In this document: piece after piece, positions 16,860 through 63,996 of the stretch
Numbering within the stretch: position 1 is the stretch's first letter
How the letters are laid out: each line of letters starts with the position of its first letter
Assembly (NCBI GenBank): GCA_029571225.1
Contig: JAKPTF010000035.1
Coordinates: 12,575 to 76,574 of the forward strand
Direction: 5' to 3'
DNA: 64,000 nucleotides
Origin: Candidatus Omnitrophota bacterium
GTDB taxonomy: Bacteria; Omnitrophota; Gorgyraeia; Gygaellales; Profunditerraquicolaceae
Translations under genes and position numbers: made by a program
Notes under the pieces: model-generated
Told to the model about the DNA's origin: nothing
The model's input: the letters and a program-made list of their open reading frames with translations, nothing else
Databases searched by the model: none

Positions 16860-16861
16860 GG

Positions 16862-17010: not shown

Positions 17011-17076
17011 GAAATACTTTTATAAAAGATTGATAATCTATTTACCTTGTTTCCCATGCACAAATTAATATAGCGA

Positions 17077-20000
17077 TTAAATATTTGTCGAGAAACAGCC
17101 GTCTATCCATACAACAAACTCGATCGCTGTTTTTTCAAGGACATTGTTGTTAAACGCTCCCGCAAGAAAGGCTTTGATGCCGCCGTCTTTGTTCTCAGGC
17201 GCATTGTCGTTCTTATTGTCTTTCCCACCCTTATCATATTTCACATAAAATCCTGAAGCAGTTCTCTGAGTCTTCTGCGCATCCGTGCACGCAGCCCGCA
17301 TAGTATCAATAGCCGCGTCTATATTGCCTGCTCCCTGAACCAACGACCGCACGTGATCGGTCTCATACCCGCACCGGCACCAAAGATGCGCAAGCTGTGA
17401 TTTTTGTTCGCAGGTCGCTTTAAGGCCCAGAAGATAACAAATATCCTCTTCGCTGAACACGTAGCTGCCGGTATACTCTGATCGCCGACAGCACAGCTCG
17501 ATCAAAAAACTTGTTGTTTCGGCATCGAGGACAATAAGGCTTGCTTTGCTCATGTTCCTGATCTGAGTCTTATTGAACAACGGTTTATTGCCTCTATAGA
17601 TAAGCGAAAGCAGGAATGCGTTTCGCTCCCGCCGAAGCCAGTACGCGATGCTCTTCAGAGGCCCGGCATTCATTCCTTTGCGAGATTCCATGAATTCGCC
17701 AAGCCTCACATACGGGCTTATATTATCGGGCACCAGGCCTGCTTCCACCAGCGCCGTAACAAGCTTGCCCATGCGCGTATTGCAAAGTTCAGCCAGCCGT
17801 CTGCTGTCCATCCGCAGGTCCTTAAGGAAAAGGAACTCGGGGTCCCCATACTCTCCTGCCGGATTGTTTATCCGGCAACACAAATTGAACCCCTGCTTTC
17901 TCCAGAAACCGGTCAAGCCTGCCAGATTATTCTGCGAAACGAGCACGGACGCAAAATCGCTCCCCATGGCCCTGCATACCGGTTCCATGAATTGTTTATA
18001 CAAAAATGTGCCAATGCCTTTCCCACGCAGGGCCGGGTCGAGCATAAGCTCGATCTGTGCGCGCCGCTGGGTATCTATTTTGGTAAAGTGCATCATTGCC
18101 AGCGGCATCTCCGTTGGTTGCGCGGTTCGGTCTCGCAGGAATACGGAATACGCAAAACCATCCCGTGATGTCACGACTGCCCGGAGCGAAGCGATCCCGG
18201 TCAGCTTTCGCAGCTGTCGTATCGGCAGTTCCGATTCGATGAAGGTCTTGACGGGAATTGCGCCTCCGTCCGAACGGCGCACCGCGTATCCAGCCCCGGA
18301 CCGCCGGATATTGACAGCAGGGTCACGCCGCGGATTGAACACGTAATAATATTCGCTCCTGTCCTCGCAGGGCAGGGACAATTCCCGGCTACGATAATCG
18401 TCGCTGTCAAGCGCCTCCTTTGCGTCTGCGGTAAAGCAGGCCCCTCCTGCAGTGAATACGTACGTACGGCTATCCATTCTGACTTTCTTCGACTCGCTCA
18501 AGGCGCTTTTTCTTACCAGATACTTGAGATAAATCCGCCTCTCCAGAAGCTGTTCGTACAGACACTGTTCCCCGTGCAGAGTCGCATCGGGATAACTTCT
18601 GCAAAAAGCCAATGCCTCCGCATAGATACGGCAGCTGGTGCTCAGGGTAAAACCTGCCTCAGGCGAATAATCGAACAGTATCTGTAATGCGCTGCACGGC
18701 CACCTGAAGAGGTATCGGTCAAGCGGGATCTCGTCGCAGGCCCTGCGCCCTGACGGACAGAACGCAAGGGCAATGTCTTTCCTGCCATGCGCATGTGTAG
18801 CTCCGAATTTGCGCTGCAACAATGTATTGATTTCAGGGAATCCGCGCTCTGACCGGGCAAAGCAGCACGCCCCGTCTGCGCATCTGATCCTGCCTGCCGT
18901 TTCCCGGGAAAAACGAAGTTCTATACCGTGATTTCCGCCGTCTCTGCCTCTTTTCCCCCCACCAGGATCGTCCGGAAGAACCTCAGATTCGGCCTTTGAA
19001 CGGGTATAATGCACCACGACGGCTGCACAGAATGCCGCTGTCAATATCGCGCTCAAAATGAAAACCGTATTGGACGGCAGCGCAATCAATCCCATGTCCT
19101 CAATGCCCGAAAGGAACAAATAAACCAGGAGGCCGGCGGTAATCAGTTTGCTTACCCATCTCAGGCATGTTGAGATCATCGGATTGTGCTGCAGCGTAAG
19201 CTGGCAAAGGGATTTTGATACGCATACGTCCAGCACAATGACCAGTAAGACCACATTGATTATGAAAGCCGCAAAGGTAATCCCCGTGCCGAACCGGCTG
19301 AGCAGCAGCGGCGTTATTCCGAGCAATCCGGGGCCCGCGATCAAAGGAAAAGAAACCGGGATTACGCAGAACCATTTATAGGGAACGGCCTCGAAATATC
19401 TGCACACATGGAGGCGGGGCATGAAGAAATCAAGACAGAATATTCCCAGGACGATGACGCAGGCGATCTTCAATATCCCCAATTGGAACAGGGACAGGGA
19501 AAGCCCGAGCGCCATGAAGGCAATCACAAAAACGATTGATATCGGCATCGACAGCAACAACAACCTCCTGATGCTGCCGCGCGTCAAATTAAGATGCTGG
19601 GCAATCGCACGGAAAACGATCGCGGTTCCGATGATATTGATCGCCATGCCGACTACAAATACCGCCATGGCCAACTGGTAAAGCAGGCCCATCATGCCTC
19701 CGTCCTGCTGCGCCTCAAGTCGCCGGAGCATATCGATCGACCGAGCCTGCGCATAAAGGCCTTTGCCTCTGAGTACCTCCCGGTAAAAAACCAGTATTTC
19801 AATCCACGTCCGGCCGGAAAAGTAAAGTTTCTGGTTGCCGAACCTGACCGGATGGCCGTTATCTATCAGGAAAAGCCCTGTTGATTCTTCAACGACCTTA
19901 ATGACTTCTTCCGGCGAGACCGATAGAGAGACCTCCTTGATGAGCCGGCGGTAGAATAACATCCGTTCCTGCTGGGATACGAGCCGCTTCGACCATGGAG

Positions 20001-23000
20001 CGCGCCTCTTGCGCGTCTCGATACGCGCGAGTATGTTATCGTACTGGCGGATCAGTATTCCGAACAGGACCTGATGAAGAAACGCATGGACGCTTTGATC
20101 CGTACAGGCGAGCTCGCTGTAGAGAGCGCCCGGGGAGGACAGTTTTCTTTCGAAACGCAAGCTTGCGCGCTCGAACCTGCGTTGAGCACGCTCGATCGCA
20201 CGGCTGCTGTTCGCCGGATATACGGACACGATATCAAAACCGACGTGGTTATTCTCGAATACGACGAGCGCGCCGATATCCGGGTTGATGGCCACAAAAC
20301 GGCCGTCATTGATGAAGTAATTCGTATCATGGCTCAAGACCACCTCATACGGCATTGCCTCATACATGCGTAGCAGCTCAAGGACCGGTTTATTGCGGTC
20401 GTACAGCGGGCTGCGGCTCGGCCATTCGTATAAATGGCGGGAAAAATGCCAGCACAGATTTTCAACGCCGGACCATGCGATCCTGCGAGCGCCTCCGTCG
20501 AGATGGTTATTGCCGTTCTTGATGAATTCAATATACGTGGGAAGCGCTTCGACCACATCGTTGTCCCCTTTGACGAGGATCGCGTACATGCCGAGGCTGC
20601 GGGCCGGATGGATATCACTGTCAAGATTATCCCCCACCATAATGGCCTGCGAGCTGTCGATATTAAAATCCCGCAACACAATCCTGAACGCTTCCGGGTG
20701 CGGCTTTTCTTTCTGAGACGGGAAATCGTCCTGCGTGATGATACGGGAAAAATATTTCTTGATCTTAAGGTATTCGAGCGTCTTATATGCCATCGCTTCG
20801 CAGTTGTTCGTCAGAAGCACCAGGGGATAATCCTCTGACAGCCTATGAAGCACACCCTGCAGCTCGGGATTCGGCTGAAGGTACCGGGAAAGATCAATAC
20901 TGGCAGTCAAGTATTCATGATAATCGTGGGCGCTCAATCCGAACATGCGGCATATCCTGCTATGGCTCTTTTCGCTGCCGACGCGCTGTTCGATCTCCGC
21001 GGCGGATAAAAACGGCCTTCGGCACCTGATGAACTCGAGCAGCGCCTGGTCATATTTTTGTGCGAGCTCATCGCTGTCGTAGAGCGTGTTATCGAGATCA
21101 AAGATGATAACCGCGACGCTTCCCGAAACCCGCTGCTGGACAGCCGGCAAAAACGTAGAAAAGAAATAGTACACCAGACCCGAGAGCTGCTTGGGCCCCG
21201 GATGCTGCTGCTGGTAGTAGATCTTGCGCAGCCGCGCAAGATATCGTTTTTCAATGGGGATCCCCGCGTTATCGACAACTACGATGAATTCAGCCAGCTC
21301 CAGAGGATGCGCCTTGAAATATTCATAACTGATGCGGCGGCCGCCCCGTTCCCCTTGATGGGCAAGATGCGCCAGCTCGTGACGGAGGATATCTTCCTGG
21401 ACGACCCGGGGCAGGGTCAGAAAATACGGATGGAAGCAGATGGTATTGGTCTCCCGGACGCTGTGGGCGACCTTGGACCAGCGCAAAGACTCTTGCGCCG
21501 AGATAAGGACGTTGAATTCCGGCGGGCCGCGGATGATGCCGCGTGCCGTATGGACCAGATTGGCGAATTCCTGGAAGCTCCAGAAATAATCATACACGAT
21601 GGCTCCCGGCTTGATGGCATATCTGCCTTTGGAGATTGAAAAGGATAGGCTCGTCGGTATCCTTTTTGCGTATTTCTTTTGGCCTTCCTTTCGGGCGTGC
21701 GCCGGTATGACAAGCGGGTAAAAATGACGCCGATGGCCGTTATTATACATTCTAAAAATCTTCCCGATCAGGATCAGAGAATTCACCGCAAGCCAGACTG
21801 AAATACCGATGCTGATGGCCAGGTCGAAGAACGGCATGCCGGTGACGAAGATGGCGATCCCCGCTGCTATTGCGGCGATAGATGCCGCAAGGTCCCCGAG
21901 AACATGGATGTATGCCCCTTCCATGTTGATATCGGTGCCCGAATGGCCGCAGAGGAACCGGTACCCGACCAGATTCACGATCATGCCGAAGAAAGCGATG
22001 ATGAGAACCTCAGCCCCCCCCACCGGTAGCGGCTTGAAAAACCGGACTAATGCGGATATGATGATATACCCCGATGTTATCCCGAGGATCAGCGCGTTAA
22101 TGCCCGCTGCTGCCAGCTGGAGGAAAGAGTTGCCTTCGTATTTCGGTGCAAGCCCGAACCGGTGCGTGGCCCAATGCGCGACCAATGCGCAGCTCAGCCC
22201 TGAAATATCCGTTATCATATGGCCGGCATCGGCGACAAGCGCCAGGGAATGGAACCAGAGGCCGCCGATGACCTCGATAAGCGCATATCCGGCGGTAATC
22301 GCCAGGACGATCATGAGCACACGTGTCCCGGCGTGATGATGTTCGTGGCCGCCATCCCTGAAACCATTACGATGGTTGACGTTGCCGTTGAACGTCTCGA
22401 CCATCTCCGGGTATTCGGCATAGGCAGCATAGCCCTCGCCGATCACCTTTCTTGTCGCCGCGAATATGACCGCGGAAAATACCAGGGTCTGCGTCATGCC
22501 AATAGCAAACATGAAACCGAATACCAGATAAGCGCCGATAGACATCACAAAACTGCGCAGGAAATCGCGGCGCGCCGTGCTGCGGCGGTAGCCCCGCAGG
22601 ATACGCTGGGCATAATTGAGCGGCCCGCCGACCATGCTCACAAGAATGATATCAAGAATTATATTGACCGCCATGTTCCCGCCAAGCATCAATGCAAGCG
22701 GGTCTGAAAGATACATTTTAGCCGCGACAATGGGTATGCATGACAGGCCGCTCGCGAACAAATCATTGGCGAGCTTCTTACGGCGCACATAACCGTACGC
22801 GCTTATAAGCTTTCGCACGCGCGTGGAAATATCAGCGATCCGGGGACATACAAGCTGATCGCCTACATATCCGCACGCTTTCATATCGACAAGGGCATTG
22901 CGCACGATCACAAGGCTGATCCAGACGCAGGAAAGCACAATACTGATCTGCCCGATGCCCTGTCCGAGCGACATGCCGATAACGGTTGCAAGTATCCCCG

Positions 23001-26000: not shown

Positions 26001-29000
26001 GGTCGTCGGCATGGGCGTCAAGGATCATGCTGAAAACCGAAATATGCTTGCCGAAACCGGCAATCTGTTCATACAGGTCCTTGAAATGCGCGTTGAACTT
26101 GAATTCCATGATGCCGTTGACCGTCGTAGCATCGACTTCCTTTGAACCCTTGGCGGAGATGAACACCCTCTCAAAATCATCGATGTCCCCCAGGTTCGCG
26201 AGGAACGCGATGATGTCCTCGAACTCGAAGCTGAACTTATGAATGCCCGAGGTCTCGCCGAGCATGCCTTTCACCCGGCCATAGCATTTTGTATCATGCC
26301 TGCAGCCGACGTCATGGGTCCCCAGACGGCTGAACCTGGCGAGCGTCGAGCGCACAACATTAACGAGCATGCCCTTGTGGGGGAAACGCGAATACATGAC
26401 ATTACGGTTGCCTTCCTGCATCAGGTCGTCGAGTTTGCTGACAAAAACCCCCATGTCCGCCTTGCGCACGAAACGGTTCCAGTCCGGTATGATCTCGATG
26501 CCGCGGAACAGCTCCTGCATCTGGCAGGACAGGCGCGCATCGGCAGCGCCGGCTTTATTGGCGTAAATCAGGCCGAGCAGAAGGCCGGCGATCCTGCCGT
26601 CTTCGATCCTGATCCGCTTATCGGTAAAGGCCGCGCGCATTTTCCTGAACTGATCATCGAGAGCGGACGCAGCGGGACAGAACGAACGTATGTCTTGGCC
26701 ATAGAGCAGCTTGAATATGCGTTCCATGGCGTCCGTGTTTCCCGTGGCAGGAACCGTAAGATCATTAAGCGCCTTATCAGCTGACGCAAGGGCCTCAGAG
26801 GCCGGATACGAGTATCTGACAATATTGGCAAGTATGGCCTGCCGCTCGTGTCCGGGCAGGCGCAGGAAAAAGTTCAGGTCGCCGTTAATTACCTCCTCGT
26901 TGCAGGAATCTTTTATCAAACATCGGTCGCAATGCAGTTTATGGCGGAGGATGAAGGTAAAGGTTGGTATATCGTGCAGGGCTGATGCGGGCAGATCGAT
27001 GACTCCGGTGACGGCGCAGGTCGTGAATATGCCTTTGTCGCTCGGGGAGGAAACAAGCTGGTAATCAGGAGGGCTCCTGATCGAATACACGTATCCCCAT
27101 ACCTTGTATTTCTTGAGCGTGTCAAGGGCGGCATTGAGGATACGCACGATATCGTCCTTGGTAAAACCCTCGCACTGGCAATTCTCAATGATCACCTGTT
27201 TGCCGATGATCCTGCCGTAGATGCCCGGCGCTGTCGCTGACGGCGCAATCGGGGCTTCGCCGCCGTCTTTGCGGCTGTTCATCCTGTCAAGCACCGACAG
27301 GAGCCTCTTTTGCTCCCGGCTTCTGGCGATCTGCAGGTCTTTTTCATGCAACCCTGCCCAGAAGTCATGATGCAGATGCCCCGCATTCTCGATAATGATC
27401 TGATCGATGCGCCCGCCGATTCCGCCGCGGGCCATTACCTCCAGGACGAATTCGAGGCGGAAGGACTTGCGCAGCGGCAGATTGATATTGTCGATCAGGT
27501 ACGGCACGCAGCCGCGCTCGCCGAATGTTTGGATAAATTCTTTGTAGGGCCACCGGCTGTCTTTGGCCATAACCGCCACGCTTGCGAGCACCCGCTGCGC
27601 AAGCAGGCCGGTAAGGATATCGCGGTAACTCCATCCGAACATCTCCGGATTTGCGGCTTTATGGATCGATTCGATGTATTCGATAAACCTGCTGCCGAAA
27701 CCGTCGGTGTCTTTTGCAAGCTCCTCGATGACCCGGGAATTGAATTGCAGGTTGAACACGCCCATCAGGAACTCAAGATAGAGGTCGAATAACGGCATCT
27801 TTTTTTCCGATGTCAGGAATATGATGCAGCCTGCCAGCCGGTCAACGATGATATGGCGGGCGGCATATTTCTGCCGGGCGTCTGATGGCAGGAGGCGGCG
27901 GTCAAGCACCCACACCTGCATTTCTTCCCTTTGAATCTGACCGCTGTTCAAATGCCTCTTCCACCATTTCGGCTTGACCGATTTTCTGTCAGTGAAAACC
28001 GAGGCGAACGCGAGCATCATGCGGAATGGTTCGCGTTTTTTCTCCAGAATACGGTTATAGATACCGGGGTATCTCTCGAACAGCGCAGCGACCTCTTTCG
28101 GTTTGTGCTGTTCGATGAGATCGCGCATGGCCGGCTCGGAGATGGCAAAGACTGTGCGCGGGATGCCTGATTTTTCCATCTGGCCGAGAAAGATGTCGCG
28201 CGCCTTGGAAACGCCGGAGGCAGTCGTCGTATCGAGGTCTGCCTTCAGGAAATTCCTTCTGATCTCGGCGAGCATCTGATTCAGTTCTTCCGGGTTATAG
28301 AGGTCCTTGCGGTACCGGTTCAGATGCATGGCGCGGATATTGCCCATCGCGTATCCCAGGTCGATCTCGAGGTCGCTCGTGATCCTTGTCGCGCTCACCA
28401 CCGAACCCGTACTCCTGAATTTCTTGCGGTTAAATGGTATAAGAAAGTGGATGTTTTCCGCGACCTTGCGGCGCAGGACCAGCTTCGGAAACAGGTAATC
28501 GATAAAACCGCTGACCACCTGGCTGAAAAGTTTCCTGCTGATCTGGTATGCGCCGGTTTGGCCGAGGATATTGCTGCCGCCGAGCAGGGTACAGCCGATC
28601 GTCGCAATGGTAAAACCGACGTCCTTATACGCTTCCGTGTATTGGGCATCGACGCCGAATCCTTCTTTTTTGCGCGTGTACATGGAATACAGGACTCCGG
28701 CGACGATATTGACAGGCAGCTGGATCAGGACGATGGCGAGTATCTCACCGTATCCGAGGATATTAACGGCAGTCCAGAGCGACGCGATGTTGAGGACGGA
28801 AAAGATGATGAGGCCGTAAAGCCCGTACTGGAGGAATTGCGCGAATTTCTGCCAGTCGATATCGGCCCAGTCCCATTTCTTGACCTTTCCGCCGTACCAG
28901 TGTATCTCATCCGTTATCACCGAGCGCAGGAATACGCTGACATGCCACAATATCCAGGAAATAACGGCCCACTCGTATCCGATAGGGATGCCGATGGTGA

Positions 29001-32000
29001 TGAGGAACACCGCAAGGACACCGACAAGCGACAGGGCGATCCAGCCGATATATTCCCAGCGGATCTTCTTCCTTTCATAAATATTCTTGATGACCGGGTC
29101 CGCAGCGACTTCCTTGCCTTCTCCGCCGTCCTGAACGGCCCCGGCTCCCCATCGGGAATAAATCCTGCGGTACGCATTCTGCGTGGCTTGGTCCCTGCTG
29201 AGCCTGAACTGGTCAACGGTGGCATCGAGGATATATCCGGAATCCTTGCCCGGAGGCGTTATAATGACGAAACTATGGCCGTCGAGTGCATGATACCTGT
29301 TCTCTTTAGCATATACCTGATCGACCCGGTACCCGAGCAGGGAGAATGCCTCGGCAAGCAGATACGACGCTAATCCGCAGCAACGCGGATATGCGGGAAG
29401 CGTTTTGATATACAGGTGCAAAATCCTGACCACGGCATCCGCCTGCGCTTCTACCGTGTCCATTTCATTCACCCGCAGCACCCGCATGCCCTTGAGCATC
29501 TTACTGCGCAGGACGCGCGCCTGCAGATACGGCCGCCTGCTTCCGGGGATAATGGAAATAAATCCGATGTGGTTGGCCAGATAATCAGGCGCAGGCTGCG
29601 AGGAAGCAAGATAGAAGTTATAGACAAGCGACCGCTTATCGAGTTTGTCCATTGGGAACAGAACATAATCGCGTCCCTTCTGCCCGGAAATTGAGCGTAA
29701 ACGCGTATATTCGCGCATGCGCCGTACCCTGACTTTTCTTCCTCCGTCCTGCGTGACGCTTCTTGCATTGCGTCTTTTTTCAATGGCCATAATGGCTTCC
29801 CGAACCGCACGGCGCACCTCAAGGTTCCTGTCGTCGCGGAATCTGGCCAATACTTCGATGTCGTTTTCATCCCCTATTTTACCCAATGCCGCAGCGGCAT
29901 TGGAACGGCTGCGGAAATACACGGACGGTTCGAGATATCGCGCCAGCATATGTTTTGCCCGACAATCACCGGTTTTTGCGCTGATTGTTCCGATTGCTTC
30001 AATGAAATCGGGGGTAACGTTTTCATTGTCGCTTTTGCGCTCCAGGGCAAGCATCAAAAACGGTATGGCGCCGGGATTCGCCATTTGCCCCAGATGACCT
30101 GCTCCTGTCCTGTTCCAGCAGTTATGATAATTGAATATCATGTTGATCTGCTGCCAGATGGGGGCCTTGCCCTCTTTTGTCTCGATCCTGCCTCTGACCT
30201 TTCCGGCTGCCTTAAACGCCTCAAAAACAGACGCATCGATATAAAATAAGCGGATAACGCTCTCTGAACGCGCATGCCGGAATGTTTTCTCGCACGCCGC
30301 GAGCCCATCCTGTTCCATATCGTGCTTTATGCGCCTGAATATCTCAACCGGAACTTCATAAACCGTTCCGCGTACCCGGCTACCCGGTTCCCTGACCGCG
30401 ATCGCCGAACTATATACTTTGCCGTTGTATTCGAATGCATATTTATAGATGCCAATACACCCGATATCGAGCTCGGCGTTCGTTTCGCGGAACATCCTCA
30501 ATATATCAAGGTCAAACCCAAGTTTCCACGGCCCATAGACAAACAGGGAAACATTCTCTTCTCCGCCGTCGCGCCTCGTATGATTATTCGTTGTGCGCAC
30601 GCGCTCCAGCAGGGCTGCCAGCTCGCCGCGCCGGTAGCGTTCTAAAAGTATCGCGCGCTCGCGAGCCACAGATGTATTGCTTATTCTCCTGCCAAGTTTC
30701 ACAGACACTTCCCATGCGGTAATTCTTTGCTCTCCGGCAAGAAGGTTATCGATAGCGGCACGGTCATCCAATGTTATGCCATTTCGTTCCATGGTATCAG
30801 ACAGAACTTCAACGACCCCGTCCCGGATCGTCCTGGGATAGCGGCCCATGTTATTGTCAAACTCTTGAATGTCCGGATATATGGCCTTCATGATCTTCCG
30901 GTCCACGCTTTCTATCTGGAATCCCTCTTTATTGACAAACCTGATCGTGATTGCTCCGAGGAATGCAAGAACGCGCAGATCCAGATTCGGGTTTAATGCA
31001 CCCGTAATGCCTTTTGATAAAAGAGCCACAGCCATGGCCCATTTCGTCAACGGACCTGACCCGTAATCATGCGTATAGATGAGGTACAGCCTGCGGCGCT
31101 GCAGGGGGATCGGGTTCAGAAGTATTCGTTCGACGCGCTGAACCGTATTGCGGCTCACGTTCTGGCTTTTTTCCAATGACTTAATCCGGGCAATGCGCGT
31201 ATCTTTGGAGAACAGCGTTTTCATGGTACGCATGAACATTATCACATGCCTAACAGACGTGACCTCCGAAAGGCCGGCCTTTCCTTTGAGATGCTCGAGC
31301 AAAGAATCCAGTTTGACTGCATCGGGATCTTTTCCTCCGTCACGGAAAGGCTCACAAAACATCCTGGTCCGCTGAATGGCGCGTTCCTGTTCTTCCGCGA
31401 TCCGGTAAAACTCTTTATCGGTAAAATAAACGCTGCCACCGTATTCCACTTCCAGAGCATCCACAATAAGCTGGAACAAAAACATCTCAAACTGAACCTT
31501 GTCCAGCGGAAAGCTGATGCCGGAATCGATATAATGGGACAAAGGCGATTCGACCCTCTCGCCGTAATAATACTGCGGCAAAGCTGCCAGGATGTCCTGC
31601 TCCCTGCTCAAGATCCCCCGCTGATGCATGATCCTGATAATGAACAATTGCAAAACCATTGCGAGATCGTGGAACTCGGCGTCCGGGCTATTATCGGGCA
31701 TCGTGATTGTGATCTGCGAAAGTCTGCCCTGTGGATCATAGCCGACATCTAAGGTGCCGTAATCGTCCGTCCTGTTTTCACCAAGGGGATATATTACGGT
31801 CTCGATATTCACCTCCAGGTTTGTTGCCAGGCAGCGGATGAACGCCCTGAAACCGGGGAGCATCATCTTTTTTGCCTGCCGCGAGCACGCGGACGCGTGC
31901 ATCATGCGCATTGCGCTTTGTACCCTGAAGAAATATTCCTTCAGCCTTCGCGCCAGGGAAATATGGCTGTAATAGAACCGTGTTTGCGCATACACCGCTG

Positions 32001-50000: not shown

Positions 50001-53000
50001 GGTGAAGCATGATAACGCGGGCGATCACGTCCTCATCGAAGCCGAATTTGCGGCGCACAAGATTCAACAACTCGCGCTCGCTCAGTTCCTCGATCCATTT
50101 CACGCGGAAACGGTTCATCAAAGCGGGAGACAAGGCCTGGCGGCCGGCATACTCAACCGGGTTCATGGTAGCGAACAGGCGGAAGTTGGGATGCGGAACG
50201 ATCTTCTCACCGTCATGCTCGCGCAGGATGATATTGCGGTCGTCGTCGAGCAGCGAGTTGATGCGCTCGATGATCTGCGGTTCTGCCAGGTTGATCTCAT
50301 CCAGGAGCAGCCAGTATCCGTTCTTCATGGATTCTATCAGTATGCCGTCAACCCATTTCAACGTGCCGTCGGCCTGCGGCCTGCGGCCGCCGATGAACTC
50401 CAGCTTATCGGTCTGGCCGTTCAAGTTGAACCTGCGGAAGTTATTATTGCTCAAATAGGCCAGATAGCGCACAAGCGACGTCTTGCCAACGCCCGTTTCG
50501 CCGATGAGCAGGATAGGATCGTTAAGCGTCACTGCCTGGCCGATCGCCTCGAGATTGCTCACGGTCGAGGCTGTATGCACGAGATGAGCGACGTCTGCGG
50601 AAGGGACATACGGCCCGCCCTGTTCATTGATCATTACCTTCGCGCAGCCGACCTGCACATAACCTTCCTTGGGCGGCAGGATGCGATTGTTCGCGTCGCG
50701 TTCGTTGAAGTGCTTGCGCGACCGCACGGACTCAAAACATTGCTTCATTTGCGGATGATATTTGGCAAAAACAGCTGCCACTTCATCTGATTTCTTCTGC
50801 AGGTCTTCCGGCAGGACCGGCGCATTGAGATCGACTTCTGCAGCCACATCTTTTAATAATCTGCCGTCCACTTTCTTATAGCCGAGCGTAATGAGCGCCC
50901 GCGCTGCCGATGCTGCCACAAACCTGTCTTTGCGGTCCAGGAGCGTCATCAAGTATGTTGCGTATTTCTTGAACCGGAATTGATTGACCAGGTCGATGAT
51001 CGCCCGTTTGATCGGCCCATCCTCATAGGTAATGGTATGGTCGATCAGCTGTTGCGCTATTTCAGGCGGCAGGCCTTTCCAGGCATAAATTGCGGCAACG
51101 GTCGTCATATCGACTTTATCGCTGAGCATTCCGGAACTTTCCCTGATCGCTCCGGCCAGATCTTCAGTTTGGCCGCGGACAAAATACCTGAACAGGACAT
51201 CCAGGTTGTTTGAGAACAAAATGTCCCGCTCGTCAAATCCTTTGAATTCCACGATCTGGTCAAACTCATCGCTTGCCGCGACATCGATAAAGCTGCCCAG
51301 ATTCAGCTCCGACATAGTTTTCATGAATTCTTTGCGGTCCTCGGGCTTTTCCATGCGGTCGCGGTATACGTACATCGCGCCCTTGACGAATGACCGGGCA
51401 AGGCCCAGTCGAGGGCTGAACTCGCGCACGTAATTCGACCACGCGCGCAGGTCTCTCAGGCTGAACTCATACGGCTCTTTGCGGCCGGCGCCGATCATGT
51501 TCTTTTTAACCTTTTCCCTCAGCTTGGAATGCAGACAGACCATCTCCTTAACCACCTCATCCTTCTGCGTGAGGTTCTCAAGGGGTTTTATCGCGTCTGC
51601 GACCAGGTCTTGTTTACCGCCGTCCTTCATCGGCGCAAGTGTCGCCTCGGTCACCGCAGGATCGAGCGCCTTGTTGAGCTGATACCATTCTTTCTGGTTT
51701 AACCCGTAGTTCGCAGCCAGGGAATGCAGGAAATCCACCTTTTGCTGCTGCGAATACGCTTGCCATTCGGGCTGGGCCTGCTTGTCATAGAGTTTAAGTG
51801 CGGCGTCATGGAAATCCGGCCGGATATCCTTGAGGATAGTCTTGAGGTAAACATGCGTCCATCCGCCCGGAGGACCGCGCGCAGCAAGCTCCATGTGCTC
51901 ATAGAGCCTGATCAACTGTTGTTCCTGTCCGATAACGTCCTTACGCCTGAATTGCCGTCCAAGCCACGATTCGTATTTGGCGACCACGCCCTGGACCAGC
52001 TGGTAACTTTCGATGCCTTTGAGATTGCTGATAAAGTCGTCTGCGCTCCTCGCTCCCCTCGCTGCTGCAGGCACGCCTTCGGAGATAGCCTCATCAGCCG
52101 CGATCTCCTTGGAACGGAGGAACTCGGCCAGCGCCTCGATACTGCGACAGCACTGCCTGAGCTGTTCCGGAGCCAGGCTAAAGACGAGTTTTTTGAAATC
52201 TTCGTGCCTGCTCATGGTCTTGAACGTTTCAAGGCTGACACCGGCCTTTTTGTCAAGCCGCACCTGTGCCGCACTAAGCACCAGTATTTTTAACCTGGCT
52301 TCTTCAAAAGACTGTGAGTGATCCGCAATCTCATCCTGAAATGCACCTTCTTCCTGCAATTCACGGAGCAAAATTTCCGTGTTGCGCTTGTCAGAGAGTG
52401 TATTAATGATCCTGCGGGCAACATCCGAGCGGGAATTAAGCAGGAATAATTTAAGCAGCCCTGCTATGTCCTTATTCGACCACTGGCCGATGATGCTGTT
52501 CATCTTTAAGATCAGCTCATCAGGGCACGGATCACAATCAGGGATCAGCATTTTTTCGATCACCGCTCTCTCTTTGTTACTTATGGAACAAGATACCCGC
52601 AACTGCCTGAATGCGAACACGGCATATATGCCAAGATGAATAAGCGACGCTACCAGCATCACAGGCACGAAAAGGCAGCAAACGCTTCCGAAGAGCCAAT
52701 AATACCAGGGGATTACAAAAGTTATGCCATAAAACCATTCTATTCCGACTAAGGCTATGGCGAATATTATTCCACCGAGGATTTCGCCGACGGGTACTAT
52801 ATGAAGCGCTATAAAGGCCCCGAGAAACTTCGAGTCCCATAAACCTTGGATCCTCTGATCACATTTGGCCGAGAGCTGTTCCAATGCAGCGTCTTTATTC
52901 GCCAGGGGCAGCGCCGCATACTCGGCAAACAGTTCCTCCTCGTCCGGATTGCCGCCGTCCATCAGCGGCGCCAGGGTCGCCTCGGTCACCGCAGGATCGA

Positions 53001-56000
53001 GCGCATAGACAAATTTCTGCTGTAGTGATAACGTCTCCCAATCAGGCCGCAAGCGCCGGTGATACAGCTGGGTAATAGCCTCTTTCAACCGGCCGGGACC
53101 GCATGCTTCCCTGGCGATAACAAGAAATTCCAGATTCTCCTGGCGGCCGCCGTCGAATGCCCCGGACATGCGATAGTGCTGATCTATTGCGGCATACTCT
53201 TCTTTTACCCTGGCCATCCATTGATCATGAGCTTCCCTGCCGTTTTGCCCGGAGAATTCCGGTATTGTTTTCTGCGCTGTCGTTGATATCAGGTCAAACA
53301 GTTCCGTGTCGGATCCGGTCCCGGTGCCGAATGTATGCTGCAGGTCGCGTATAAGACATATCCCCATGCCGATGCGCTCGAGAACCGTCTGATCGTACAG
53401 ATTCTGATATGACAGAGAAGAAATATTCCTGGCCAGATGAGCCGGCGACAGGAAAAGCCATTCTAACATAAGCGATTTGATAATGGTCGCCGGAACGGAT
53501 AATGAGATCCCACCCAGCACCAGAGACACGGCAACGGCGGAGAGCCAGGTAATAGGCGAGACGATCACCACCCATATCAGGATGTAGCCGATGTTAAGGG
53601 ATGCCTTTGCGCACCATGAAAGCACGGTATCAATGGTGTTTATCGTCTTGCGGTGCCTGCCAAGGGCGAGCGGCCATCCTGCCGCATCTTTACTGCGTGT
53701 TTTCCATCCGATCAGATGAGCTGTCATACGGCAGGAATCAGTTTCCAGGGACGGATATAAACCGTTGAACACCGCCGCTGCCAGATTGACATGCGTGAAT
53801 ATTATCAGCGCAAGCCAGGGAGACGCGATGTTCGGGATCAATACCGAAAAGGGCGCGATCCCCAGGGAATACAGGACGATAAGGCCGATCACTGCCAGGA
53901 TGAGGTTGGATAAAGGCCCTGCCGCTGCTACGTAGAAGCCGGACCGGCTGGAGCTAGTGATCGCCGTTGCGGGATCCTCCTCGACATATGATGAGACAGC
54001 GGACAGCCTGATGCGTCTTATGGGCCTCTTGAATCGGATCATGACGAGCGCATGCGCGGCCTCATGGATGGCTGATATGGAATATACTCCGAGAGTCAAG
54101 GCGCCCAGCACCGGGTTCAAGACCCACAGGACGATTATTGCAGGAACAAGAAGAACCAGATTAAAGTGCAGTTCGATCGGGATCGATGTGGGCAGGTGAT
54201 AGACGCTTGAGAACCCTCTTCCGGTCCAGCCGGATTTTCGCCGCTCCGTTTCAGATTCTCCGCCGTCGCGCAGGATGACGTGCGGCAGGGTCTGATAATC
54301 GGGCACGACGGTGCGGATGTTCACCGCGCGCTTGAGCTTCTCCCAATCGACCTTATTGAGCTGATGCTCTGCGGCGATATTCTTCAACCAACCCAGCTTC
54401 TCCTCCAAGGATAAGCCGTTCCATTCAGGCCCGCTTGTCTTCTCAAACACCTTGACCGCCGCTCTGCGCAAAGGCGCATGGGGTCCGTAGTTTTCCTGTA
54501 TCTGTGTCCTGAAATACAAATAGGTCCAATCTGCGGAATCACGAGGTATCGTCAGCCCGATTTCTGATATAAGATCCTTCAGTTTAGTCTCCTGAACGTC
54601 AAGTTCATAATTATGCCCGAGCGGACCGTTAATAAAATAACCCAATTCCCACTGTTTATATGCCCGCACCACAGCTTCTTTCAGGGCCCAGAACTTAATG
54701 GCATGCAGATTCCGAGCAATCTCCTCTTTGGTGGCGGCGCGGGTCGCCGCGGGCACAGAATCGCATAATATCCCGTCGACTGCGATCCCCCGGCTGCGAA
54801 GGCCGCTGCACATCGAGACGATCATATCAAGGCTTTGCTGAAAATCATCCTGCGCGAGATTGCGGATCATTTCCAGAAATTCAGTCTGCGTGGTAAGATG
54901 AAGAAACACCTCGTGGGCATGCCGCATACCTTCCGACCCCTCTCCCAGGTACGGCACAAGCTGACGCTCAAATCCATACAGGGCGCGCAACCTATCCCTG
55001 GCGGTTTCGGCACTATCTGCCAGGCGGAATACTTCGCTCTGGAACTTTAACTCTGCCTGTAGCGATTCCGTAAGCCTTGCTCTTCTTCTATCGTTCCAGA
55101 CAGACAACGCGCAAAACCGCACGGCCTTGTCGCCCTGCAGCCGGGAGAGCCAATCCTGGATCAGAAACGTCAAATACCTGTCCGGAAGCTGGCTGAAGGC
55201 TTTTGCCGATCTCTCCAGACTATTATCAGATACATCGGAGCTGTCAGATACTATGATCTTCTTCATCCGGGGATGATCAACGCAATGGTGCACGGCCAAC
55301 GCAATATCATACACATGACCCGTGAGGAATAAAGCGCCCATAACAGGCATGATATAAAGAATATTCAGGGAAAGCGTGAAACCCACGCCAGCAGCTATAA
55401 AGTTTAAAATTACAGTCATGAAGAAAACTATCCATCCAAGATCAGCTTCTGGTGACGTATGATATGTCCGCGCCTCCAGTGTTTTCCAGAAAGGGACCTG
55501 CGGCAGAGCCTTGCATAAGCGATTAGAGATTTCTTCATCTGCCACAAGCAGCATATTGACTACGAAGTTTAAAATAGATATCATGAATATTGTCGCGCAC
55601 AAAATGAGGCCCAGAGCGGACAACATAAAAATTCCATCGATAGTCACGGCCTGCGTATAGAACTGCCATGCCAGACCTGTATCGCCTCCTGACAACGCAG
55701 CCCAGGCCTGCGCAAAATATGAAAGAGATATCTGATCCTGGGGGGTTAAGAAACCGGCGGCGAAAACGCTGCATGCAGTCCACAGCGACCCGCCATCCGA
55801 ACGCAGGCTCGCCAGTCCGTCCTGGTCTGTTAATTTCTCCCGAATAAGACCGTTGTTGAACTGCGGGTTGACCCAGACGATCCTTCCATCAGGCGTAATG
55901 TCGCAGAGCGCGGGGCACACAATATCGATGCCGAAGGTCCTGTGCCACTCATCCTGTATATCGCGCGGCAATATCAAACGGTATATGTCGGCCACCGCAC

Positions 56001-59000
56001 GACCCTGCTCGACGTGGGTATATGCGGCCCTGTCCGGCCAATTCGCCGGGTCAAGAACCGTTTGCCAATCCGCCTCTGTAATCTCTCCCTTCTGCAGGCC
56101 CAACACCACCCTTAAACTGCTCAAGAGTTTTTGTCTTTCCTTCGAAAGGTCGCCGCCGTCATGCTCTGCCGCTAAACTAGTCTCCTTGGCACTGATTATT
56201 TCAAGCGCATCCCCGGCCATTTGAAGCGTTGCTTTCATACCCCGTATCTGCTCATCGGAAAAATCGCCGCTGGCGCGCACACTTTCAGCGATCTCATCGC
56301 GCATCTCTGCGGCGCGCGCGCGGCGGTCCGCAGGCTTTTCCTCCGCAACCAGATGGTGAATACCCTCGGCGATCATAACCAGGTTCCGGTCGTTCATGAA
56401 GTCTGCCGGGCGCAACTGGCCGGCAATATCCTTGAGCTGCTGTACCGACGTTATGGCATAATCGTGGTTAACCAGGCCAAAGGCTGAAAACATCAAAACG
56501 AATACACCTATAATTCCCAGGCTGAAGGGCACATAAAACGGAAGAATGCCGATTACGGACAATACCGCCAGGGCAATGCAACTGACCGCGACAATCCGGC
56601 TGTAGACTACGGTCACCCTGTTCGCATAAACGACATTTGTTTTCATCGCAAGCAATGACCTGATCACGCGGCCCGAATCAAGCGGGTACATCGGCATGAA
56701 AAGATTGAATATGCCCAGAATCCAATTGATCAGGCCAAGCGACACCAGCCAGGCGAGCGGGCTTGCCATATCTATGACCGGCCAGGCGAACAGGTTGAAC
56801 GAAGCACCCAGGAGCGCTGCGGGAACGAACAGCGACGCTGCTATGCCGAAACTTGCAAGGGGGCCGGCAATGGAAACCAGAAATTCCTGTTTCGGATCCC
56901 TGAACTTCATGTCCCGGATCGCCGTAGTGCCTCCCAGGATATGAAGCGTAATATGATCCGTTTCAAAGCCGTATCGCCGGGCAGCGCGGATATGCGAAAA
57001 TTCATGCGCCAGCACTGACAGAAGAACGGCAATATAGAACAACAGAAGTTCCCATCCGGTTAACGCAAACAGGGCAATCGGAATAACCAGCGTGATGTGC
57101 AGCCGCAGCGGGATCCTGGTCGGTATCTGTAACGATGGAAATATCCCGTCGCCGACCAATTCCCAGGATTTGCTCTGCGCTGCGCCGCCGTCCCGGCTCG
57201 CATCGATCCGTGTCGACGGACAAACCACCCTGGCTCTGAACCATAGAGGAACATGCCGGATCATATCCTGCCTGATCGAAACAGCTTTTATAAAGCTGTC
57301 CTGCGCCATGTCTTCAAAGCCAAGGGCAAGCGACATTGCCCCCAGGTTTACATGTGATATATGGCACGCCGGATTGAGCTCGATTGCCTTCTGCATCTCT
57401 ATAATGGCTTGCTGAAAATAACCCTGCCGGTAATAGAGTAGCATGCTGCGGTTATAGAGAACCGACGCGTAATCGGGATTCTGCTCAAGCGCCTTCCGAT
57501 ATGCCGAAAGTGCGGCGTCATAGTGGCCGAACTCCGCATATACCGCTCCCAGGTTATTATAAATACAACAGCTCACGCCCGGCTTATCCATTATCTGGAA
57601 CCCGAAGTAAAACAGATTCAATAATTCTTTCTTTGTGATGCGGTCGACATCCAGCACGCCTGCCTGATATTGCTGCTCGAGTTCGATAACACGCTCGCCG
57701 GATATTTTATAGTTTGGCTTGAGTACCCAATATACGCCTGCTTTGCGGTAATATTTCCTAACATTGACGACCCGCAACGTGTTTAATATGAAATCGATCA
57801 CCAGCAATCTTTTCTTGTCAAGCATGAGCCCGACAAAACAATGTCCGATACGGCTGCAACCCCGGACGTTGAATCCCAACATTGCCAGGATGATATACGT
57901 CAATTGCGCGGTTACAATACATCGCGCGAGGCATGCTTTCATAGCAGCGCTTTCGCTGCCGGAACGGGAATCGGCATCAATGACATCGAATATATTTTCG
58001 TGGTTCAGGCTGTTGACTAACAGCATGCTTATCTGCGGCGGATCAACCTCTTCAAAAATCCGGTTCCTGTCGAACAGGTCCCACACCACAAGCATTAATT
58101 GGCCGAGATGCTTTCTGCCTTCGGGGGCATTACGCAGGCACTGATGCCATTGCGCTGATTGTTCTGTAAGGGTTTGCCATGTATCTTCAGGAAGGACCTG
58201 TTTGATCTGAGCGTTCAACGCCGGAACGGCATTTTCAGGATACCCGATGCTCACGAGAATACCGGATAATTTTTCATCATACGCTCCGCCGTCCAGGCTG
58301 AGATACAACTCCAGAGCCTTGTTCCTGACCAGCGCAGTCATTTCCGCTTTCATATCGGCATCGTCAGGGTGCGCCATGCAGCGGCGGAAGGCGCTATCAA
58401 AAACCCGGGCCGTGAATTCAAATCCTGCGTTATAGTAAAATTTTATGTAGCCGAACATCCCTGCCGGATCGCGGTCGATCACCGGCGACGGATCATGCGC
58501 AAATCCCCTGACCGCGCCCTCATGAAGGGAATATATTGCACGGAGCCGTTCGATGAATATCTCGCGCGTCCAACCCTGATGCCGGTATTCCGGGAACAGG
58601 AAGAACCCGGTATTAAAGAACCACTTGGAATGCCAGCCAAATCCGACAATCCCATCCCTGTTGGCCAGGATCTCGAGCCTTTCATGGCGGCCGCCGATCG
58701 TGACGTTGAACCCGCGGGGTCTTTCCGAACAGGACCAGTGTATCCCGCGGCCGAGGATCGTCGTGTAGAACGGATCGTTCTCGAACATCATGATACCTTC
58801 TGTCTCAAGACAGAAATACGTCCTGCCGTAACGGGCGCTGTGCTGACTTATTTTTGCATCAAGCATTGCTACCTGGTCAGAGCTATCGGCCCAATCGGAA
58901 TCGAAAAGCTCGATCGGCTCTTTGATCCTGCTGACGATTTCTTCGCGTCCTGTCCCGCCGTCGCGCAGCGCTCTCTCGATCATCTTGATGTCGCTTGAAA

Positions 59001-62000
59001 GCCTGTCCATGGCAAAATCGGTATACCTGCAGGCGATCATGCGTTTATTGACCGGCAGTTCTCCCCGCGCCACGCGCGTCCGGATGCCCTTCATGGTAGA
59101 GGTAAACCCGCTGATGAAGCTATCCCTTGCCGCAGGCCGGATATCCCGGGCCGCGATATTCGACAGGAGGGATTGCAGCATTCCGGCCTGGGTGCTCAGA
59201 TCGTCTTTGTCCAGAGTGAACGCGCTGACAAAATCTATATTGTACATTTCAATAACCGTATCGAGGTCAAGATCAACCCGGATATTGCTCGGGTTCCTGT
59301 CACCGAGGCCGATCAAATAAGCGGCAAATGCGGTCTTGCCCAGCAAATATGCCAGTTGCGGGACAAAACGACGGTTCGCGAGCAACGCGTCATTGAAAAG
59401 GTAGATATCCTCAAGGCTCGAATTGCCCACGTTGGTATAAACATAGTAATGGCTCCGGTAATCGACGAGCATCTGCGTCGGCAGGGTAAACGCCTCCAGG
59501 ACTATCGAGGCATACGGCTCATAGCTGTACGAAAAGGCCTCTTTCAGGATGAGCGTTATATGCTTCGAACCGAACCGGACTTCCGCGCGGTACGTCCGGA
59601 GGTCATCAAACGAGGTCTGGATTACGCCTTTTATTAATTTCACGGATCCGATGCCGTCGCAGCCGAGGCGGCAGAGAAGCTGCCTGATAAACTGTTCTTC
59701 CTGGCCGCCGTCGCACGATTGTTTTGCGGAAGCCGCATCCTCTTTCCCATCGGCAGCAAGATACTTTTCTATGACGTGGCCGGGGATCAGCCTGTTCAAT
59801 CGTTTGACAGCAGATTCCTTTTCGTCAGGGCCAAGCACATTGATCACGTGCAGATTTCCCGGCGACAGGACAATCGCCTTCATGAAATTTTCCATCGCCT
59901 CCTGTTTATTTTCCGAATACAGATTAACGAGCCCTAAGCCAAGATAACTGCTGTAGTCTGCGGGATTGAGTTCCCGGGCAAAAGAAAACTCTTCCTCGGC
60001 ATTCTGGTAATCCCCTCTCTCAAGGTAATTGAATGCGGCGCCGATGTGCGCAACGACATAGTCCGGTTTAAGTTTAAGGGCCTTAAGATAATGCGCCAGC
60101 GCCGCATCCTTATCGTTCAGCCGGTCATACGTCATCGCCGCTTTCTTGTACATGACCGCCATAAGGCCTGATGCGTCGGTAATATATATATTCGAGTAAT
60201 ATAACGGGAACATCTGGGCATCTTTGAGCGTGTACGCAGGCTGATTTTTCCTGTCGGACCTTTCTTTCAGCCGGAGCAATGCCGCAGGCTCAAGCGGCCA
60301 GTTCCATGACAGATATTTTCCCTCGGCGTGGTAGGTATCCTGCAGCGGCACTGCCTTAATAATGCCGGTGAACAGGTCGACAAAAATGTGCTCGCCTGCC
60401 CAGGGGACAACCGCGAACACGGGGCCGGAGCCGACGGCAATCCTTGTCTCATAACCAAGCATCGATAACAGCAGATACATAAAAGCAGTCTTGTTGGCGC
60501 ACGTAAAAAACGAGTCATAGATCCTGTTTTTCTCTTCTTGCGCGAGGGGCGAGGCAAAAAGGGCGTCGAAAATATGCTGTATCGGCAGCGAGTGCACCAG
60601 ATATTCGTGGATTAACCAGACAGACCTGATATAAACCTTGTCATGCGCAAACCCGACTTCAGGGAGTTCGTCGTGCGTTGTTTCAAATACGATCTCTCGC
60701 GTCTTTCCGTCCCGGACGCTCTCGTCAAATATTTCCCTGAAGGTCTTTTCCATGATGAGAAGCGTGTCCCGGCTGAATTGCGCGCGGAGCTCTTCGATGA
60801 AAGCGGGCATGATCTCCTTTTCGCAGGACAACCGGCGCAGGATTTCAATCAGGTCCCCGTCATCGGCTATATGCCCGCGGTTGGGAAGCAGGAGCGCCTG
60901 CTCCGCCTTGAGCATGGCCTCTTTTTCAGCTCGCGATTTCCTTTCTATCTCAAGGTACATGGAAAGATACGGGATATCAAGGAACGTCGGGCAGACCACG
61001 ACATCGACCGCATCCGTATTTGCAAAGCCTTTCTTGAGGCCGCGGTAATAATTCATGATGCAATCGCCTTTTTCGAACATCTTCAGATTAAAGATGACGA
61101 ACGGTTTCTTGGCCTTCTTTTCCGCAAACGCCGCTGCCTGCAAGACAATACCCGCAGCGCTTTCAACCGGCATGGCGAATCGGGCGACAAATACGCCGTC
61201 GATGTCTGGTTGCCCTAAATAATCCGCGGCATTGTCCGCATTGACGTACCTGCCGTACATAAGATAGATCTTTCGCGCAATGCGCGGCCCGTACCGTTTG
61301 TTCCGGGCGAGCCACGTCCGCAGTGTCCGGCAGACCGCCTGGGCCTCGGCAGGATCTATTGCCTTCTGCTGCGACTCCTGCTGCTGCTTTACCCACAGCG
61401 GCAGATAAATGACAATGACCTTCTGGGCCTGTTTCCTGCCGATGCCCTGCAGGGCGGTGCTTAACTGGTTGATCAAAACCTCATTCGTGACCCCGCGTTT
61501 TCGTTCATCGAGCGTATCAGACACGAAAATGGCCGGTATCAGGCCGTGCGCCAGCGCAGCCTTGACCTTCTTATTGACGAGTTCATACGATTCCACGATC
61601 TCGACAACGCCGTGCGTCCGTTCCGGATGCCCGACCATGACAAAGGCGACCTGCTCGCGTAAAAGCATGGAGGGCGAAACCTCTCCCGTATACGGCCCCG
61701 CGTCCTTGTAGAACATGTTCTGGGCGCCCATGAATATACCGCCGTCGCGGTCGGTATCGGGGGCGCATTTTTCACGGTCGGACAGCTCGGTCATATACCC
61801 CTGCGCCGCCAGGAATTCGGCTTCTTCGAACCATGTCAACTTCGCATTGCGCATTTGTTCCATGACAATGCGGCGGTACAGCGATCCGGGATCGAGTACG
61901 ATGGTCACCAGATAACTCCACGGAAGCCGCTCGATGCGCGTTCCGTTCCTGATGGTCCTGCCGGAAAGCGGCACCGGCAGTTCCTTGCACATGATGCCGG

Positions 62001-63996: not shown

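Follow-up and report, generated by a model that had tools for sequence, protein, structure and literature searches.

Giant proteins of Omnitrophota that combine many unrelated domains in one chain have been described as 'Archaeovorins', with TIM, PGI, PPDK, TPR, HEAT and peptidase content (West-Roberts 2023, bioRxiv 10.1101/2023.11.21.568195), and as class-1 'multi-enzyme metabolic clusters' (Nielsen & Lui 2026, bioRxiv 10.64898/2026.06.07.730766), the size criteria being at least 30,000 amino acids (aa) for 'giant' in the former and at least 10,000 aa in the catalogue of the latter. Neither study reports a recurring delimiter; the cleavage points of Omnitrophota giants are stated to be unknown in the first and cleavage is not addressed in the second, while the discussion of a 2024 survey in PLoS Comput Biol raises the question of whether giant prokaryotic proteins act as one molecule or are cut. 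That question, and the motifs at which cutting would occur, is unanswered in recent papers on such proteins. Here, a stretch of 64,000 nucleotides from a Candidatus Omnitrophota assembly (GCA_029571225.1, contig JAKPTF010000035.1, positions 12,575 to 76,574; 'the window', numbered from its first base) was analysed. It carries a giant open reading frame (ORF) of 15,640 codons that belongs to the published giant multi-enzyme class, and the giant mosaic ORF itself is not new; the remark in a first-pass annotation of the window that its domain combination was not recognised from any described giant protein overstated the novelty, the published class having the same TIM, ROK, HAD, GNAT, TPR and HEAT domains. 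What appears to be undescribed so far is a punctuation of the encoded chain by the tripeptide Asp-Gly-Gly (DGG) at the boundaries of protein-sized cassettes, no mention of a DGG delimiter or of any double-glycine signal having been found in the accessible literature. We propose, with a probability of about 0.5, that the giant gene encodes a polyprotein processed by putative cleavage at DGG into approximately 38 proteins.

Extent and integrity of the giant ORF

A six-frame scan of the window identified the following ORF, the minus-strand location of which had not been mentioned in the first-pass annotation:

17077-63999, minus strand: giant ORF, 15,640 sense codons, stop codon at 17077-17079, 5' end beyond the window edge

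Counted from the first GTG inside the window (63996), the ORF lister gives 17077..63996. From base composition, the chance of 15,640 codons without a stop is about 1e-302. Codon-position composition was uniform throughout (GC1/GC2/GC3 of approximately 0.57/0.39/0.65 in all 1,000-codon blocks), and the remaining two frames of the same strand contained 23-60 stops per 1,000-codon block. The ORF is free of N bases, and neither tandem nucleotide repeats (Tandem Repeats Finder) nor tRNA genes were detected in the window. Three independent assemblies (GCA_035419745.1 and GCA_035372505.1 at NCBI, and ERZ761562 at ENA) match 11.6 kb of the ORF with four substitutions, no indels and no stops, a number of differences between strain variants at which the ratio of non-synonymous to synonymous substitution rates (dN/dS) has no statistical power, and protein fragments from other assemblies, 99.8-100% identical, tile further parts. 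The window comes from a metagenome assembly, and low-coverage short-read contigs of 2.5-4 kb are the origin of the public fragments of the gene, as would suit a frame created artificially, by neighbouring genes mis-joined through assembly or consensus errors or by a chimeric or collapsed contig. Against such an artefact, which is effectively excluded, stand the stop-free length, the uniform codon-position composition, the agreement of the three assemblies and the tiling fragments, as well as the lack of internal nucleotide repeats that could have led to a collapsed assembly and the equally long frames found in related organisms, across entire loci of 20-28 kb. The giant ORF is a genuine gene.

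It is also longer than the window, as the first-pass annotation had supposed: the frame is open to the window edge, and a database fragment (P0002) that is 100% identical to the in-window N-terminus over an overlap of 248 aa adds at least 638 aa upstream, so that the gene encodes at least 16,278 aa and exceeds the 10,000-aa criterion. The contig extension that had been suggested as a check thus gained 638 aa but did not reach the true start, and no contig reaching the true N-terminus was matched in GTDB representative genomes or the JGI metagenome collection with the in-window N-terminus and P0002 as queries. Two further views of the first-pass annotation were borne out: fragments 100% identical to the giant ORF are annotated as metagenome-assembled genomes (MAGs) of Candidatus Omnitrophota, in line with its guess at the lineage, and the amino-acid composition is that of an ordinary globular and membrane protein, which together with the absence of tandem nucleotide repeats sets the product apart from a repeat-only adhesin.

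Open frames of 400-554 codons were also seen on the plus strand, antisense to the giant ORF (47152-48813, 34477-35694 and 28171-29370); these are most likely not genes but shadows of the GC-rich coding strand. Between the stop of the giant ORF and the next gene lies the sole AT-rich stretch of the window without coding sequence (16982-17076, GC down to approximately 0.47). It contains, on the minus strand, a promoter-like TTGACA-17-TATCTT with an extended TG; the number of such matches in the region does not exceed shuffle expectation.

DGG tripeptides as cassette boundaries

The DGG tripeptide occurs 37 times in the giant ORF against 4.2 expected (Poisson p = 1e-22; maximum of 12 in 2,000 shuffles) and is its most over-represented tripeptide, the other five frames containing 0-2 each. 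A passing remark on 'DGG-delimited segments' in the first-pass annotation turned out to concern the most informative feature of the locus. At 24 of the 37 sites the residue preceding Asp is K, R or Q. The sites (aa numbering here and below from the in-window N-terminus) are:

17179-63411, minus strand: span of the 37 in-frame DGG tripeptides
DGG sites 1-13, aa 197, 331, 752, 1430, 1680, 1903, 2270, 2614, 2735, 3245, 3616, 3681, 4126
DGG sites 14-25, aa 6456, 6903, 7109, 7902, 8356, 8810, 9344, 9778, 10268, 10606, 10887, 11144
DGG sites 26-37, aa 11418, 11624, 12245, 13183, 13474, 13632, 13882, 14501, 14766, 15020, 15244, 15605

Domains were assigned by Pfam search of the giant ORF. None of the 37 DGG sites falls inside a Pfam envelope (p = 1.5e-5), and a distance of 3-25 aa separates the start or end of the TIM, CDF, CoaE, HEAT and HAD domains from a site. 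A ring of six AAA domains corresponds exactly to the longest stretch free of DGG (aa 4127-6456). The spacing between sites has a median of 352 aa, a typical size for a bacterial protein, and delimits approximately 38 cassettes, which coincide with whole domains, paralogous cassettes and blocks of homology and are plausible autonomous proteins. A single-sequence structure model of the junction between the DUF1152 and TIM-like cassettes was uninformative, with a predicted local distance difference test score (pLDDT) of 38.

Several cassettes are paralogous copies of a unit here called module X, located as follows:

54259-55788, minus strand: module X copy 1 (seg9, aa 2738-3247), from paralogue alignment
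51616-52950, minus strand: module X copy 2 (seg12, aa 3684-4128), from paralogue alignment; the copy modelled with AlphaFold
33190-40287, minus strand: region of module X copies 4-7 (seg17, aa 7905-8358; seg18, aa 8359-8812; seg20, aa 9347-9780; seg21, aa 9781-10270)

With a further copy in seg14, seven copies were found in total (window 33190-55788), an unrelated cassette (seg19) sitting between seg18 and seg20. All seven are DGG-bounded paralogues of 434-510 aa with 21-34% identity, the alignments of which reach the last residue. Each comprises 2-3 transmembrane (TM) helices and an all-alpha domain of approximately 330 aa with the motifs GVPAAxR, GxWTxVY and W..LNKAxDP. Only 11 alignment columns are invariant, and three of these are the DGG that ends every copy; it comes after a variable linker, which is disordered in the otherwise confident AlphaFold model of seg12. 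Module X matched no Pfam or NCBIfam family and had no fold neighbour in the PDB, and its distant relatives number a handful among 1.84 billion representative proteins.

DGG could also be a signal in the nucleotides or in translation, namely a recombination hotspot, an RNA processing site or a Shine-Dalgarno (SD)-like GGAGG that would make the ORF a stop-less operon. Cassettes have clearly been shuffled among relatives at DGG junctions, GGAGG lies within 9 of the 37 sites, and GAC is used at 32 of them. The sites are, on the other hand, encoded by 13 different 9-mers (synonymous codon versions), and 13 versions are likewise found in a relative with 40% GC (P0148). The preference for GAC and GGC equals that in all other D-G and x-G-G contexts, and the commonest 8-mer, GACGGCGG, was found in frame only (22 occurrences), with none in another frame or on the opposite strand, for which reasons a nucleotide motif derived from the GAC bias was rejected. 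Internal initiation at an SD-like sequence was rejected in view of the codon diversity and the lack of enrichment for SD-like sequence plus start codon after DGG (observed at 7 of the 37 sites, with 5.0 +/- 2.1 expected for random positions); Met is not enriched either. A nucleotide or translation signal is consequently very improbable: because of the 13 codon versions, the ordinary codon choice and the strictly in-frame 8-mer, the constraint on DGG acts on the peptide and not on the nucleotides.

DGG junctions in related organisms

DGG sites recur in three relatives. On a 702-kb contig (locus L083; JGI Ga0209507_1000007), a giant ORF is open across the 20.6-kb locus and contains 13 DGG against 2.4 expected; its sites delimit units of normal stand-alone size, namely GNAT (153 aa), PRTase (197 aa), GDPD (240 aa) and NDK. 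Homology between the window and this ORF, at 59% identity, starts exactly at DGG331. A second relative (L003; JGI 3300045909, Ga0496406_003196) has approximately 19 DGG in 18.8 kb. Its homology to the giant ORF runs on across repeated frame changes, many tiny ORFs being called, and it is a frameshifted giant ORF, either from an error-prone assembly or as a decaying giant gene. A 'Rosetta-stone' test on the separately called genes of L003 was rejected as invalid, the homology continuing across the frame changes; the locus is still usable for junction conservation. The third relative, P0148, is an N-terminally complete fragment of 6,788 aa from a 40% GC Omnitrophota MAG, with 19 DGG against 1.8 expected.

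Junctions are conserved where the neighbouring cassettes are not. At the start of the TIM-like cassette the window reads '...DTDR-DGG-IFMGAQNM', L003 '...RMPR-DGG-IFLGAQNM' and L083 '...DAAA-DGG-IFLGAQNM', the upstream sequences being unrelated. The cassette order of L003 differs from that of the window, its TIM-like cassette directly preceding a homologue of aa 11627-12073, and the junction DGG11624 is thereby kept beside a different neighbouring cassette.

The first DGG-bounded segment of P0148 matches Peptidase_C39 (31.8 bits against a Pfam cut-off of 22), with the CG...H motifs visible. The closest relatives of this segment are proteins of 893-1,074 aa encoded directly downstream of Tad/type II secretion system (T2SS) pilus genes (T2SSF, T2SSE, Tad; L004 and the P0155 locus), and they carry no DGG. 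Pilus loci have been proposed as a symbiosis trait of Omnitrophota (Seymour 2023).

DGG at the leaders of downstream genes

On the same strand, the giant ORF is followed by one gene without DGG and then by four consecutive fusion genes that together cover nearly the entire glycolytic pathway:

15330-16991, minus strand: next gene, 553 aa, signal-peptide-like N-terminus, no family match, no DGG
10163-15343, minus strand: fusion gene, 1,726 aa, partial class-II aldolase, PFK and GAPDH C-terminal domain; leader ends in KDGG at aa 70
7218-10073, minus strand: PGI-like gene, 951 aa; leader ends in KDGG at aa 68
1-7194, minus strand: PPDK fusion, N-terminal 2,398 of 2,573 aa; leader with RDGG at aa 46 and KDGG at aa 74
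L001 14595-16813, just beyond the window: fusion of TIM, M54 peptidase, PGK and enolase; Sec-signal-like N-terminus, then [K/R]DGG

All four fusion leaders consist of a Sec-signal-like segment followed by [K/R]DGG at aa 46-79 (p = 2e-7), and no match was obtained between these leaders and known leader families. In three of the four, the hydrophobic segment is followed by (D/N)NLRP in the form 'AAG(D/N)(S/N)NLRP' (window approximately 7090-7110 and 9960-9980; L001 approximately 14700), which could be a lineage-specific sorting or recognition signal. The 1,726-aa gene keeps only the C-terminal third of the class-II aldolase, directly after the leader. An export-like leader on glycolytic enzymes that depend on ATP poses a topological puzzle.

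Putative processing at DGG

As DGG is invariant in variable disordered linkers, in paralogues, in genomes of 40-57% GC and at leader ends, the sequences point to its recognition by an enzyme, the simplest being a protease. In the polyprotein that we propose, one long chain would be translated and threaded into the membrane, and a DGG-recognising protease would cut it into separate mature proteins with a median length of 352 aa; the same signal would serve to free the neighbouring glycolysis-fusion proteins of their N-terminal leaders. In the course of evolution, cassettes would have been duplicated, inserted and reshuffled as units carrying their own DGG. The DGG sites would be cytoplasmic and the TM helices arranged as hairpins, because the AAA ring, the kinases and the glycolytic enzymes encoded nearby depend on ATP and, from established biochemistry, should face the cytoplasm. 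More tentatively, a sub-lineage of Omnitrophota may encode much of its proteome as cellular polyproteins cut at [K/R/Q]DGG into dozens of proteins, comprising membrane transporters, proteases, an AAA+ machine and nucleotide and sugar enzymes, with glycolytic enzymes included through cleavable leaders and the cassette as the unit in which duplication, insertion and exchange among genomes take place.

We infer that DGG is cut at all, that the cut falls after GG and that a cysteine peptidase of the C39 (double-glycine) type makes it. If the cut is after GG, Gly-Gly occupies positions -2/-1 in all 37 sites and in the four leaders. C39 peptidases cleave after Gly-Gly. Because of this specificity, the C39 segment of P0148 and the C39 domains reported at the N-termini of Omnitrophota giants (West-Roberts 2023), the C39 family is the best lead to a candidate protease. 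The two M50 modules of the giant ORF are alternative candidates in cis, although M50 proteases are not known to cut at sites of the DGG type. A GlyGly-CTERM/rhombosortase signal was considered and rejected as a general explanation, 3-4 DGG sites directly preceding a TM helix and most not doing so.

The protein may instead work intact as a giant membrane-anchored multi-enzyme scaffold, the view taken in the literature, for example in a surface or contact apparatus of predatory or episymbiotic nature, with DGG as an uncleaved hinge, helix stop, docking or modification site. Proteins of this kind are treated as membrane-anchored assemblies in both published studies (West-Roberts 2023; Nielsen & Lui 2026), TPR and HEAT scaffold repeats and approximately 49 hydrophobic helices are present, and the catalytic degeneration of several enzyme modules fits binding or scaffold roles; DGG-free giants in sister lineages presumably work without such processing. 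A passive linker would, however, give no reason for three invariant residues across paralogues of 21-34% identity and genomes of 40-57% GC, and a hinge makes little sense where DGG ends the short leaders of separate, normal-length neighbouring genes. Cell-wall-degrading and adhesion domains were also absent from the Pfam matches in the 15.6 thousand aa available. We consider the intact scaffold the less probable of the two readings.

Several observations weigh against the proposed polyprotein. The sites, which have K/R/Q before Asp and no periodic hydrophobics, depart from the double-glycine consensus of C39 substrates (LSxxELxxIxGG-type), in which -4, -7 and -12 are hydrophobic. No C39-like sequence was found in the window, in L001, in the sampled parts of L003 and L083 or in L005-L019, and no other GG-specific protease was found in the window or the sampled parts of L083 and L003. 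Nor does the presence of C39 by itself predict DGG punctuation, because C39 is reportedly widespread in giants and DGG is not. DGG does not mark every domain boundary, since the CDF and HAD domains share one segment, the midasin-like unit described below is split into ring and MIDAS parts, and a stretch of 2,310 aa with several domains in L083 contains no DGG. A distant relative (P0129) has SDAA at a DGG-equivalent position, where its chain continues. Finally, nine other Omnitrophota giants with a midasin-like module (ORF lengths from 5,098 aa to beyond 9,283 aa) contain 0-2 DGG, and no alternative delimiter was found in them among 3-mers, 4-mers and GG dipeptides; in view of these nine unenriched giants, DGG punctuation is lineage-specific, belonging to a sub-lineage of Omnitrophota.

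Domain content of the cassettes

The Pfam content of the giant ORF comprises DUF1152, TIM-like, TPR, two M50, six AAA_5, VWA, CoaE, HEAT, ROK, CDF, HAD and GNAT matches. The mosaic of unrelated soluble, membrane and enzyme-like modules noted in the first-pass annotation can thus be put at approximately 13 distinct domain types. Besides module X, and apart from the midasin-like unit, the assigned features are:

62314-62916, minus strand: DUF1152 (aa 362-562), Pfam match, in the cassette limited by DGG331 and DGG752
61144-61737, minus strand: TIM-like pseudo-enzyme (aa 755-952), beginning 3 aa past DGG752
56152-57183, minus strand: M50 intramembrane metalloprotease with HEFSH (seg7, aa 2273-2616), Pfam match
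53146-54258, minus strand: second M50 with HEAAH, paralogue of seg7 (seg10, aa 3248-3618), Pfam match
32236-32784, minus strand: CoaE-like domain (aa 10406-10588) with degenerate P-loop GSAKT, ending 18 aa before DGG10606
24709-25533, minus strand: ROK-family sugar-kinase-like domain (aa 12823-13097) with degenerate DxGxT
20491-22347, minus strand: CDF cation-efflux transporter followed by HAD hydrolase (seg32, aa 13885-14503), Pfam match
17179-18261, minus strand: GNAT acetyltransferase, weak Pfam match (seg36, aa 15247-15607)

In seg32, the CDF domain starts 13 aa past DGG13882 and the HAD domain (DLDNT) stops 25 aa before DGG14501. The approximately 49 hydrophobic 19-mers are clustered along the chain (crude Kyte-Doolittle scan, not a topology predictor). 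Catalytic motifs are intact in both M50 modules (HExxH) and in HAD, and nucleotide-binding motifs are degenerate in the ROK and CoaE modules. Pfam search of the 15.6 thousand aa available gave no glycosyltransferase, glycosyl hydrolase, methyltransferase, NUDIX, SecA-like, C39 or S8 match.

Homology in the TIM-like module begins at about TIM residue 58, residues 1-57 and the catalytic Glu being missing in the window, L003 and L083 alike; Glu165 is replaced by Leu in the window (YLPLW) and by Phe in L003, and His95 is kept. The module at aa 755-952 is therefore not a complete (beta-alpha)8 barrel with Lys12, His95 and Glu165, and it is not classed as a working TIM. The cassette is 42-60% conserved among the three organisms (window 61144-61737; L003 16615-17148; L083 approximately 10037-10648), and because it is conserved to this extent with the catalytic Glu and the first 57 residues gone, its sequence points to a conserved pseudo-enzyme with a non-catalytic role.

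A midasin-like unit interrupted by inserted cassettes

The largest cassette and its neighbours form a midasin-like unit:

44626-51615, minus strand: midasin-like ring of six AAA_5 domains and lids (seg13, aa 4129-6458), limited by DGG4126 and DGG6456
42667-44625, minus strand: inserted cassettes seg14 (a copy of module X) and seg15 (aa 6459-7111), from homologue alignment
40288-42666, minus strand: acidic stretch, linker homology and VWA/MIDAS (seg16, aa 7112-7904), Pfam match

Pfam matches include AAA_5 in stretches of two and four, AAA_lid_7, AAA_lid_5 and MDN1_4th. Five Walker B motifs and three of the six Walker A motifs of the ring are intact, as is the MIDAS motif of the VWA domain (DESGS at aa 7714, with a TDG motif downstream), and by these motifs the unit looks functional. 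Eukaryotic midasins are 27-30% identical to the module at aa 4129-7904 over approximately 45% of its length. Omnitrophota MAGs supply the closest homologues of the AAA module. Three Omnitrophota homologues of the midasin-like unit (P0005, P0006 and P0009), which have no DGG, can be aligned to it as far as aa 6454-6460 and then again from aa 7121-7157, and therefore skip exactly the two cassettes between DGG6456 and DGG7109.

Midasin-like relatives were also seen inside giant ORFs of nine other Omnitrophota species, in a protein of 4,005 aa annotated in a Thermoproteota archaeon (P0007) and, in shorter form, in MAGs of Anammoxibacter, Vulcanimicrobiota, Myxococcota and Verrucomicrobiota. Midasin/Rea1 is a eukaryotic AAA+ remodeller of ribosome assembly. 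Like Midasin/Rea1 and the prokaryotic MoxR-VWA systems, the window module has six tandem AAA_5 domains, midasin lids, an acidic stretch and, at the C-terminus, a VWA domain with MIDAS; unlike them, it is embedded in a giant ORF and split by two inserted cassettes, has only three of six Walker A motifs intact and bears no sign of a ribosome-related role.

Significance and comparison with known systems

The DGG sites are explicit, residue-level candidates for cleavage, 37 in the ORF of the window and more in three relatives. They make the question 'one giant protein or many?' directly testable and allow rational splitting for structure prediction. Should processing be confirmed, this would be the first cellular polyprotein system of such scale, an 'operon-in-one-gene' strategy so far known only from viruses, and the reading of gene counts, operon structure and metabolic reconstructions in Omnitrophota would change. 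Should it not be confirmed, DGG still defines the evolutionary building blocks of giant genes.

The MARTX toxins of Vibrio and related bacteria, type I secreted proteins of 3,500-5,300 aa, carry several effector modules that act separately once a cysteine protease domain (CPD) in the same chain, activated by InsP6, has cleaved after Leu between them. They resemble the giant ORF in being very large proteins of unrelated, exchangeable modules with short sites in between, their content varying by recombination, whereas the cargo of the window is housekeeping-type enzymes and membrane proteins, its motif is DGG, no CPD is present and cleavage is only proposed. Viral polyproteins cut at Gly-Gly, such as pp220/pp62 of African swine fever virus (cut by pS273R) and those processed by the papain-like proteases of coronaviruses and alphaviruses, share with the window a single ORF, protein-sized units and a short motif ending in Gly-Gly at the junctions; in the viral systems the protease is known and processing proven, while the ORF of the window is cellular and 5-10 times longer, with cleavage only proposed. 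The C39 double-glycine leaders of bacteriocins and PCAT systems are paralleled by the Gly-Gly that ends the leaders of the four downstream genes and by the C39 segment of P0148. Unlike those systems, the leaders of the window are 46-79 aa long with a Sec-like hydrophobic segment and K/R/Q at -4, and the sites are mostly internal, with huge cargo and neither ABC transporter nor C39 in the window.

The closest match remains the Archaeovorins and multi-enzyme metabolic clusters. Glycosyltransferase, methyltransferase, glycosyl hydrolase, NUDIX, SecA-like and C39 members of the Archaeovorin signature set were not seen in the 15.6 thousand aa available, and peptidases (two M50), TPR and HEAT were. 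In common with the published class, the giant ORF comes from the same phylum, is a single frame of tens of kb without nucleotide tandem repeats, combines many unrelated Pfam families of which none dominates (TIM, ROK, HAD, GNAT, peptidase, TPR and HEAT included), has about one TM helix per 300-400 residues and lies near PPDK and glycolysis modules. It differs in that an invariant [K/R/Q]DGG, seen in one sub-lineage only, divides its chain into cassettes.

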